A stretch of DNA of 64,000 nucleotides, taken from Escherichia coli. GTDB lineage: Bacteria > Pseudomonadota > Gammaproteobacteria > Enterobacterales > Enterobacteriaceae. The DNA is taken from the NCBI RefSeq assembly GCF_003334335.1, contig NZ_QOWQ01000012.1; one strand, given 5' to 3'. Positions 37,008 through 37,049 of this stretch are shown here, in pieces. A program made the translations under genes and the position numbers. Under the pieces are notes generated by a model, which saw only the letters and a program-made list of their open reading frames with translations, was not told the DNA's origin and made no database searches. Numbering within the stretch: the stretch's first letter is position 1; the number at the start of each line of letters is the position of its first letter.

Positions 37008-37049
37008 CCCCTCGCCCCCTCGGGGAGAGGGTTAGGGTGAGGGGAACAG
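37008..37049. repeat. GC-rich imperfect palindromic element downstream of adk
   Basis: cccctcgccccctcggggagagggttagggtgaggggaa; arms cccctcgcc / ggtgagggg; shares the 12-mer ggagagggttag with the ybaY/atl hairpin at 15139-15151. Confidence 0.5.

Follow-up and report, generated by a model that had tools for sequence, protein, structure and literature searches.

Introduction

The short intergenic repeats known as BoxC (Bergler 1992; Bachellier survey), PIT elements (Hoyne and Maher 2000) and TMECO (Holder et al. 2015, PMC4666352) are one and the same, the last of these papers having equated all three. With one C-rich and two G-rich blocks, a single strand can fold into alternative hairpins or, in vitro, into a purine-motif intrastrand triplex, which CD and NMR detected in oligonucleotides of both TMECO types, A and B (PMC4666352). 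Strain 55989 contains 29 TMECO and IHE3034 just one, Salmonella is reported to have none, and the BoxC/TMECO studies have reported no common flanking gene (PMC4666352). According to the summary of earlier tests in PMC4666352, PIT elements have neither promoter nor terminator activity and do not affect RNA polymerase; stabilisation of mRNA is not among the negative tests in that summary.

The REP/BIME sequences, which are associated with RAYT (TnpA-REP), are like BoxC in being short, GC-rich, palindromic and intergenic, and in occurring both singly and as inverted pairs. Intrinsic terminators, which are often bidirectional, are the described elements to which a perfect GC-rich stem-loop between convergent stop codons is most readily compared.

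Here, we examine two GC-rich palindromes in a 64,000 bp stretch of an Escherichia coli genome (from contig NZ_QOWQ01000012.1, hereafter the window). One lies downstream of adk and the other between ybaY and atl, and a 12-mer that they share had led to the prediction that both belong to one dispersed family. It is very probable that they are instead two separate things, a passenger copy of BoxC beyond adk and an unrelated, locus-specific transcript-end hairpin between ybaY and atl. The adk element itself is known and ordinary; the part worth following up is a link between BoxC and DUF559 genes.

A known BoxC copy downstream of adk

The gene order around the adk element is htpG-adk-hemH-aes, and the stretch from the end of adk into hemH (36880–37260) does not differ from that in K-12-type genomes, with the end of adk at 36985 corresponding to position 497819 in K-12. 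The sequence of the element was confirmed as originally written, spanning 37008–37046, and the guess that it might be BoxC has been borne out by the consensus, the published copies, a profile search and its dispersal. Positions 37009–37043 are an exact three-block match to the TMECO consensus, CCCTCNCCC-N3-6-GGGNGAGGG-N3-GGGNGAGGG, for which the chance expectation is 0. The 36 nt core (37009–37044) is letter-identical to TMECO no. 6, a type 'A mm' element in the sense orientation at 497843–497878 in K-12 (Holder 2015 Table 1, PMC4666352), and the supplement to Petrillo 2008 (PMC2267715) lists its reverse complement as eco:4_BoxC. In a BoxC HMM made from the 21 other published copies, model positions 2–50 aligned with 36999–37047 of the window (54.1 bits, E=7e-16). 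We conclude that what lies downstream of adk is E. coli BoxC (PIT element, TMECO), in a copy that had been published before. It shares with the described elements its three blocks, 'A mm' type, TTA linker, intergenic location and dispersal, and differs from them in nothing.

Further copies are abundant. A 75 nt BoxC query matched at 96054 places across 5426 E. coli genomes, each of which has 1–35 of them (median 19). An alignment of the adk copy with ten other K-12 copies gave the conserved core (G)GTC-CCCTCGCCCC-TNT-GGGGAGAGGG-TTA-GGGTGAGGGG-AA, and the GCAC-containing flanks of the core are more weakly conserved. The features of this region and of the ybaY-atl region are listed in Table 1.

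Table 1. Features of the adk-hemH and ybaY-atl regions of the window, and stems found at the atl site in Enterobacteriaceae
Feature	Position	Strand	Details
ybaY coding sequence	14545–15117	+	convergent with atl
ybaY/atl hairpin	15124–15151		arm TAACCCTCTCC 15125–15135, loop GCCC, arm GGAGAGGGTTA 15140–15150
atl (MGMT-family) coding sequence	15148–15459	-	TAA stop at 15148–15150
adk coding sequence	36341–36985	+	RefSeq annotation of identical region; ORF list
Full BoxC repeat unit	36997–37060	+	core plus weakly conserved flanks GCACGGACAGTC and AACAGGCCCGCACAAG; other E. coli copies align here
BoxC block 1 (pyrimidine block) CCCTCGCCC	37009–37017	+	consensus match; TMECO no. 6
BoxC block 2 GGGAGAGGG	37023–37031	+	pairs with block 1, one G.A mismatch
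BoxC linker TTA	37032–37034	+	between blocks 2 and 3
BoxC block 3 GGGTGAGGG	37035–37043	+	pairs with block 1, one G.T mismatch
Hairpin AGGCCGGAT-ATTC-ATTCGGCCT then TTTT	37080–37105	+	fold -13.3 kcal/mol, z -4.8; probable adk terminator
hemH coding sequence	37221–38183	+	downstream neighbour of adk; ORF list; annotation
atl-site stem, Escherichia, Citrobacter, Salmonella			TAA-CCCTCTCC...GGAGAGGG-TTA
atl-site stem, Enterobacter			CCCCTCTCC...GGAGAGGGG
atl-site stem, Kosakonia			GCTCCTCC...
atl-site stem, Buttiauxella			AAGCGCCTC...
atl-site stem, Klebsiella, Kluyvera			AAAAAAATGCCCC...GGGGCAT, T-run on ybaY side; reads as a classical ybaY terminator

The current K-12 RefSeq record has no annotation at the adk BoxC site. 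Rfam, which has no family for BoxC, returned nothing at the adk element or the ybaY/atl hairpin at the gathering threshold, and no significant match to either at E<=0.01. Among the sub-threshold matches at E<=1, Antizyme_FSE (19 bits) was treated as chance or generic hairpin likeness. The suggestion that the palindromes might be REP variants finds no support in Rfam, as the REP-derived naRNA4 was matched three times at gathering level in the window, at 40613–40690, 47751–47828 and 47852–47929, and not at either palindrome. Other gathering-level matches in the window were the dnaX frameshift element (32522–32586), the sRNA sroB (46370–46453) and the SRP RNA ffs (15622–15718).

The adk-hemH spacer is dimorphic

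Two alleles of the adk-hemH spacer are found in E. coli, the K-12 type and a replaced one. A place covering at least 80% of the K-12-type region was found in 2913 of the 5426 genomes, and the remaining 2513 are without one. The 13 two-piece matches listed (59% cover) span 277 bases instead of 381. In the two genomes that were aligned (L002 and L003), 52 unrelated bases with a hairpin of their own stand in place of the 156 nt that include BoxC and the hairpin downstream of it (window 36986–37141), which makes a spacer of 131 nt. As 2513 genomes do not have the K-12-type spacer and the two aligned carry another allele, the adk copy of BoxC is dispensable, and it would be a passenger at this site rather than the terminator of adk.

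That the spacer is dimorphic exactly around the BoxC element would be expected if, as Holder 2015 proposed, such elements act in DNA, forming intrastrand triplexes or hairpins that stall replication and destabilise their surroundings. This proposal overlaps the passenger explanation preferred here. TMECO oligonucleotides do form a triplex in vitro, variability is raised around TMECO sites in 56 strains (PMC4666352), and the adk copy folds as single-stranded DNA (-13.7 kcal/mol, z -3.3). However, the triplex was seen neither in double-stranded DNA nor by in vivo DMS footprinting (PMC4666352). The dimorphism consists of one segment in place of another, which the insertion of a mobile unit would explain as well as the published variability around TMECO does. 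Instability also leaves unexplained why the same sequence has been kept across very different bacteria. We consider an action in DNA less likely than not as the account of this copy.

A role for the adk copy in RNA is very unlikely

The original prediction gave the adk element a role as a terminator or RNA-stability element at a 3' gene end. Its position is as described, with the BoxC core beginning 24 nt past the adk stop codon and in the transcribed orientation, and its predicted RNA fold is stable (-32 kcal/mol; ViennaRNA, which models hairpins only). Many of the K-12 copies also lie between convergent genes. A hairpin in the 3' UTR might thus terminate transcription of adk or block 3' exonucleases, as some REPs do. 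However, the fold stands out little from its background (z merely -2.2 on the + strand), and BoxC is followed by AACAGGCCC and not by a U-tract. The published tests of PIT elements for terminator activity or an effect on RNA polymerase, as summarised in PMC4666352, were negative, and, as above, 2513 of 5426 genomes do without the K-12-type spacer. All of the K-12 copies fetched are intergenic. Some separate convergent or tandem genes and others are found within the pst operon or in divergent promoter regions, so that location at a 3' end is not a trait of the BoxC family.

A separate hairpin followed by a T-run lies further downstream (Table 1), and from its predicted fold it is the probable intrinsic terminator of adk. 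The BoxC copy would then sit between the adk stop codon and the structure at which adk transcripts most likely end. Scans for promoters and terminators were negative at both the adk element and the ybaY/atl hairpin, and the downstream hairpin is missing from the simple terminator scan because it is followed by only 4 T. Taken together, a function of BoxC in the adk transcript is very unlikely, and we continue to regard this copy as a passenger.

The ybaY/atl hairpin is conserved at its locus

The second palindrome is also present as written, except that its true start is 15125 (15125–15150), one base from that given; a T.G wobble lengthens it to 15124–15151. It is located at gene 3' ends as stated. 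The stem is perfect, at 11–12 bp, and occupies the 30 nt gap between two convergent genes, with the ybaY stop codon 8 nt upstream and the atl stop codon forming the base of the 3' arm. The predicted folds are stable on both strands, at -21.2 (+) and -19.7 (-) kcal/mol with z of -4.7 and -4.1. The ybaY/atl region is found at a median of 1 place per E. coli genome.

For comparison, 80 atl loci were fetched from other Enterobacteriaceae. Of 81 loci, from many genera, 71 have a hairpin with 8 or more pairs no further than 50 nt from the atl stop codon, and a hairpin was found in Salmonella arizonae (L021). In O157, a C/G insertion in the hairpin is compensated, and where atl ends with TGA (L018, L047 and L052) the stop codon pairs with TCA. 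Among 49 distinct hairpins with 4 nt loops, 89.6% of the stem cells are paired, compared with approximately 52% after the partner has been shifted one or two bases, though these loop-anchored counts lean towards structure in that hairpin centres were picked at each locus for maximal pairing. Changes on both sides were found at all 11 stem pairs of the same set, with the caveat that template-switch mutation in palindromes can yield paired changes without selection. RNAalifold recovered no structure from a MAFFT alignment of 60 segments downstream of atl; as stems of differing length fall out of register in such an alignment, the loop-anchored pair counts were used instead.

From these comparisons we infer that the ybaY/atl hairpin is an old, locus-specific structure, orthologous across the Enterobacteriaceae and separate from the BoxC family. 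It most likely serves as a two-way hairpin at transcript ends, where it would terminate transcription or protect the 3' end. As a perfect GC-rich stem-loop between convergent stop codons it resembles intrinsic, often bidirectional terminators, and the Klebsiella and Kluyvera orthologues have the T-run of such a terminator. In contrast, the E. coli hairpin has the atl stop codon within its stem and no clear U-tract on either strand, with GTAGTTCC or ACGTCGCT following, and for this reason the terminator role is proposed rather than asserted. Of the two elements for which an RNA role had been predicted, it is plausible for this hairpin and unsupported for BoxC. The hairpin would also be a clean example of a transcript-end stem that co-evolves with a stop codon.

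Three minor observations concern this site. In E. coli strain A25 (L006, 370–440), the IS4-like ISEc13 has been inserted in the left arm of the hairpin and the ybaY side has been removed. The 3' part of the Rfam family rnk_leader (RF01771) was returned for window 15108–15150, but as it scored 23.8 bits (E=0.03) where the cut-off is 50, this is probably generic hairpin likeness. At the end of an Escherichia whittamii contig (L007, 10310–10402), the atl stop codon is followed immediately by CTGTCTCTTATACACA, which resembles a Nextera adapter. This contig end is probably an assembly artefact, and the locus was excluded from the comparison of atl-site hairpins.

The shared 12-mer and the question of one family

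The 12-mer GGAGAGGGTTAG that had suggested kinship is real and occurs exactly twice in the window, at 37024 and 15140; a further match with one mismatch is the opposite arm of the ybaY/atl hairpin. For this word, 0.09 matches are expected, and none of 100 shuffles reached 3. However, the word had been chosen after the match was seen, and a look-elsewhere correction was applied. Some 12-mer of the 39 nt adk element recurred in the window in 43 of 500 dinucleotide shuffles (p ~0.09), and the shared word is therefore weak evidence of kinship. The word ends with TTAG, and these 4 bases of the 12 are, in reverse complement, the last codon base and stop codon of atl (taC TAA).

While the adk element does belong to a dispersed palindrome family as predicted, the ybaY/atl hairpin does not appear to. 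It has blocks 1 and 2 and the TTA only, and its blocks are 8 nt rather than 9–10 nt. The third block is absent, with GTAGTTCCA following the TTA and leaving the consensus unmatched. The BoxC profile matched it over just 12 positions (7.0 bits, E=0.36), and it is not in the published BoxC list (Petrillo 2008, PMC2267715). Settling the adk element as a catalogued copy thus also stops a false family assignment for its supposed relative.

The hairpin could be of ancient BoxC-related origin, a decayed element that has lost its third block. It has CCCTCTCC, a 4 nt loop, GGAGAGGG and TTA in common with blocks 1 and 2 and the type-A linker of BoxC. In 1.5 Mb of Enterobacteriaceae loci, hairpins of the form CCTCTC-N-GAGAGG were found at two sites only, atl and a BoxC-bearing site 1.7 kb away. 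Two-block derivatives adjoin full BoxC copies at four loci (L023, L033, L081 and L222), and the third block is missing in approximately 13% of metagenome matches. Against this, a third block is absent from every orthologous atl locus that was read, each genome has one copy, and the flanks are without the GTC and GAA ends of BoxC. The TTA is the pairing partner of the atl stop codon, and becomes TCA when the stop is TGA. The hairpin is also kept in genomes without BoxC, being present in Salmonella, from which TMECO are reported to be absent. Among the metagenome matches, two-block palindromes of the form TAA...TTA are the atl sites and one other locus. With the profile match at E=0.36 and the shared word at p ~0.09, common descent is highly improbable, and we retain the explanation that BoxC and the ybaY/atl hairpin are unrelated.

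The BoxC-bearing sites near atl form a cluster. In Enterobacter, Leclercia and Buttiauxella (L022, L023, L030, L033, L049, L064, L078 and others; approximately 11950–12220), one to three BoxC copies together with two-block derivatives lie past ybaY, approximately 1.7 kb from atl, and none is found at the corresponding position in E. coli.

BoxC-type repeats bracket DUF559 genes

When metagenomes were scanned for CCCTCTCC-N3-6-GGAGAGGGTTA, 132 matches were returned. The motif was followed directly by GGG[T/A]GAGGG in 88 of them, and many of the others have a degenerate third block. The three-block element CCCTCTCCC-loop-GGGAGAGGG-TTA-GGGTGAGGG, with GTC or GTT in the left flank, was seen in metagenome contigs (L097–L216), several of which carry two copies. 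As the motif-bearing contigs range in GC content from 0.33 to 0.69, the three-block element is distributed far more widely than one bacterial family.

ORFs within 3 kb of the motif were clustered for 120 motif-bearing metagenome loci. One cluster of five small proteins stood out, and these match NCBIfam NF007294 (DUF559/YcjD) with E values of 1e-27 to 1e-36. ABC ATPases, short-chain dehydrogenases and response regulators also recurred near the motif, and were dismissed as generic abundant families. DUF559, with its Vsr-like PD-(D/E)XK fold, is classed together with a group I intron homing endonuclease. No DUF559 homologue is present in the 64 kb window or in the 80 atl loci.

In K-12, the BoxC copy shortly after ycjD is no. 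9, the original 'box C' found upstream of fabI, and the 3' end of ycjD is itself a two-block remnant (cgg tca ccc tct ccc TGA aag agc gag ggg g). Better preserved is another Escherichia allele of ycjD, which ends with CCC TCA CCC CAA CCC TCT CCC CAG AGG GGC GAG GGG. This is a complete three-block element in the C-strand orientation, and an inverted type-A BoxC follows 47 nt after it. A search with the YcjD protein found 3864 homologues. Most of the best 120 of these, which are mainly from Enterobacteriaceae, end with ...PSPRPSP or ...SPSPQPSP, and the longer ORF calls read on to ...WKGEGE. The PSPRPSP-type tail is the translation of block 3', CGG or CAG, block 2', the loop and block 1', so that the proteins end with translated repeat (PSPRPSP or PSPQPSP) and their stop codon falls in loop 1. 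A Pro-rich tail followed by a G/E/R block is found in 58% of 106 DUF559 representatives, drawn from a library clustered at 50% identity, compared with 2.1% of control ORF C-termini.

Eight DUF559 lineages were picked regardless of the motif (K-12, Enterobacter L218, Klebsiella L222, L225, L226, L227, L230 and L231-233). In all eight, a three-block element in the C-strand orientation is located at the 3' end of the ORF or overlaps it, that of K-12 being the two-block remnant. In five (L225, L226, L227, L230 and L231-233), an inverted copy precedes the likely start by at most a few tens of bases. The two copies in L225 differ solely in linker 2, which is TTA upstream and CCG downstream, corresponding to types A and B of Holder. 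The sequence of the repeat tracks the DUF559 lineage, and reads CCCTCTCCC, CCCTCCCCC or CTTCTCCC. The sites occupied by the genes are not orthologous, being sapF/fabI in E. coli, yggW/yggN in Enterobacter and, in Klebsiella, a site between the genes for an ABC binding protein and a Dyp peroxidase. The K-12 locus is L217 (1350900–1352300), and further DUF559 loci with the repeat are L234, L116, L125, L134, L175 and L215.

BoxC-type repeats thus bracket DUF559 genes. No report of a link between BoxC and DUF559 was found in the searchable literature, and none of the titles and abstracts listed for DUF559 concerns repeats.

A possible origin for BoxC

The arrangement resembles that of REP and RAYT in that inverted repeats flank a small nuclease gene and vary in sequence with the lineage of that gene. 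It differs in that BoxC has a different sequence and three blocks, and the 3' repeat overlaps the coding end of the DUF559 gene. RAYT is a HUH Y1 transposase, whereas the activity of DUF559, with its Vsr-like fold, is predicted. The five inverted A+B BoxC pairs of K-12 have the same arrangement as the DUF559 repeats, with a 16–27 nt spacer in place of the ORF. In this they are like MITEs, which are derived by internal deletion from autonomous elements, but no target-site duplication was seen at the pairs and no transposase is involved.

The BoxC family appears to stem from the inverted three-block repeats around DUF559 genes. We suggest that the DUF559 nuclease may act on the repeats, in a relationship like that of RAYT to REPs or like homing. 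Tentatively, as a possibility that falls somewhat short of even chances, BoxC/TMECO copies would be terminal repeats, dispersed singly and in pairs, of a very small selfish cassette that has a DUF559 endonuclease gene as its sole gene. The cassette would have a type-A element just before the start codon and an inverted type-B element encoding the last residues (PSPRPSP) and the stop codon. The nuclease would recognise or nick BoxC structures, with the G.T or G.A mismatch in the extruded hairpin as a possible target, and would thereby spread or maintain BoxC as RAYT does for REPs. If this is true, a repeat with origin and function open since the 1990s gains a candidate cognate enzyme, and DUF559, a widespread family of orphans, acquires a candidate substrate.

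Of the 5426 E. coli genomes, 3377 contain ycjD. Each of the 37 ycjD-positive chromosomes that were sampled has 13–27 BoxC places, and all genomes with 8 or fewer are ycjD-negative, though O157 keeps 13 without ycjD and the genomes in both comparisons are phylogenetically non-independent. The gene has been reported in phylogroups A, B1 and C, with eefRABCD at this position in others (PMC12817139). An occupied versus empty DUF559 site was sought at the K-12 BoxC pairs in other E. coli and was not found. The diverged E. coli/Shigella homologues P0016 and P0018 share the sapF-fabI site, and thus do not provide such a polymorphism.

Two of the loci have local duplications. Between ycjD and BoxC no. 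9 in K-12 (L217, 410–520) there is a 46 nt near-duplicate of the 3' coding end of ycjD (ggagacggtgctggagaatattc...), which suggests a past rearrangement at the cassette. In Klebsiella quasipneumoniae (L222, 3340–3590), approximately 2.5 tandem 62 nt units lie between the type-B element at the 3' end of the DUF559 gene and a type-A element, and each unit contains the two-block hairpin CCCTCTCCC-TCA-GCGAGAGGG.
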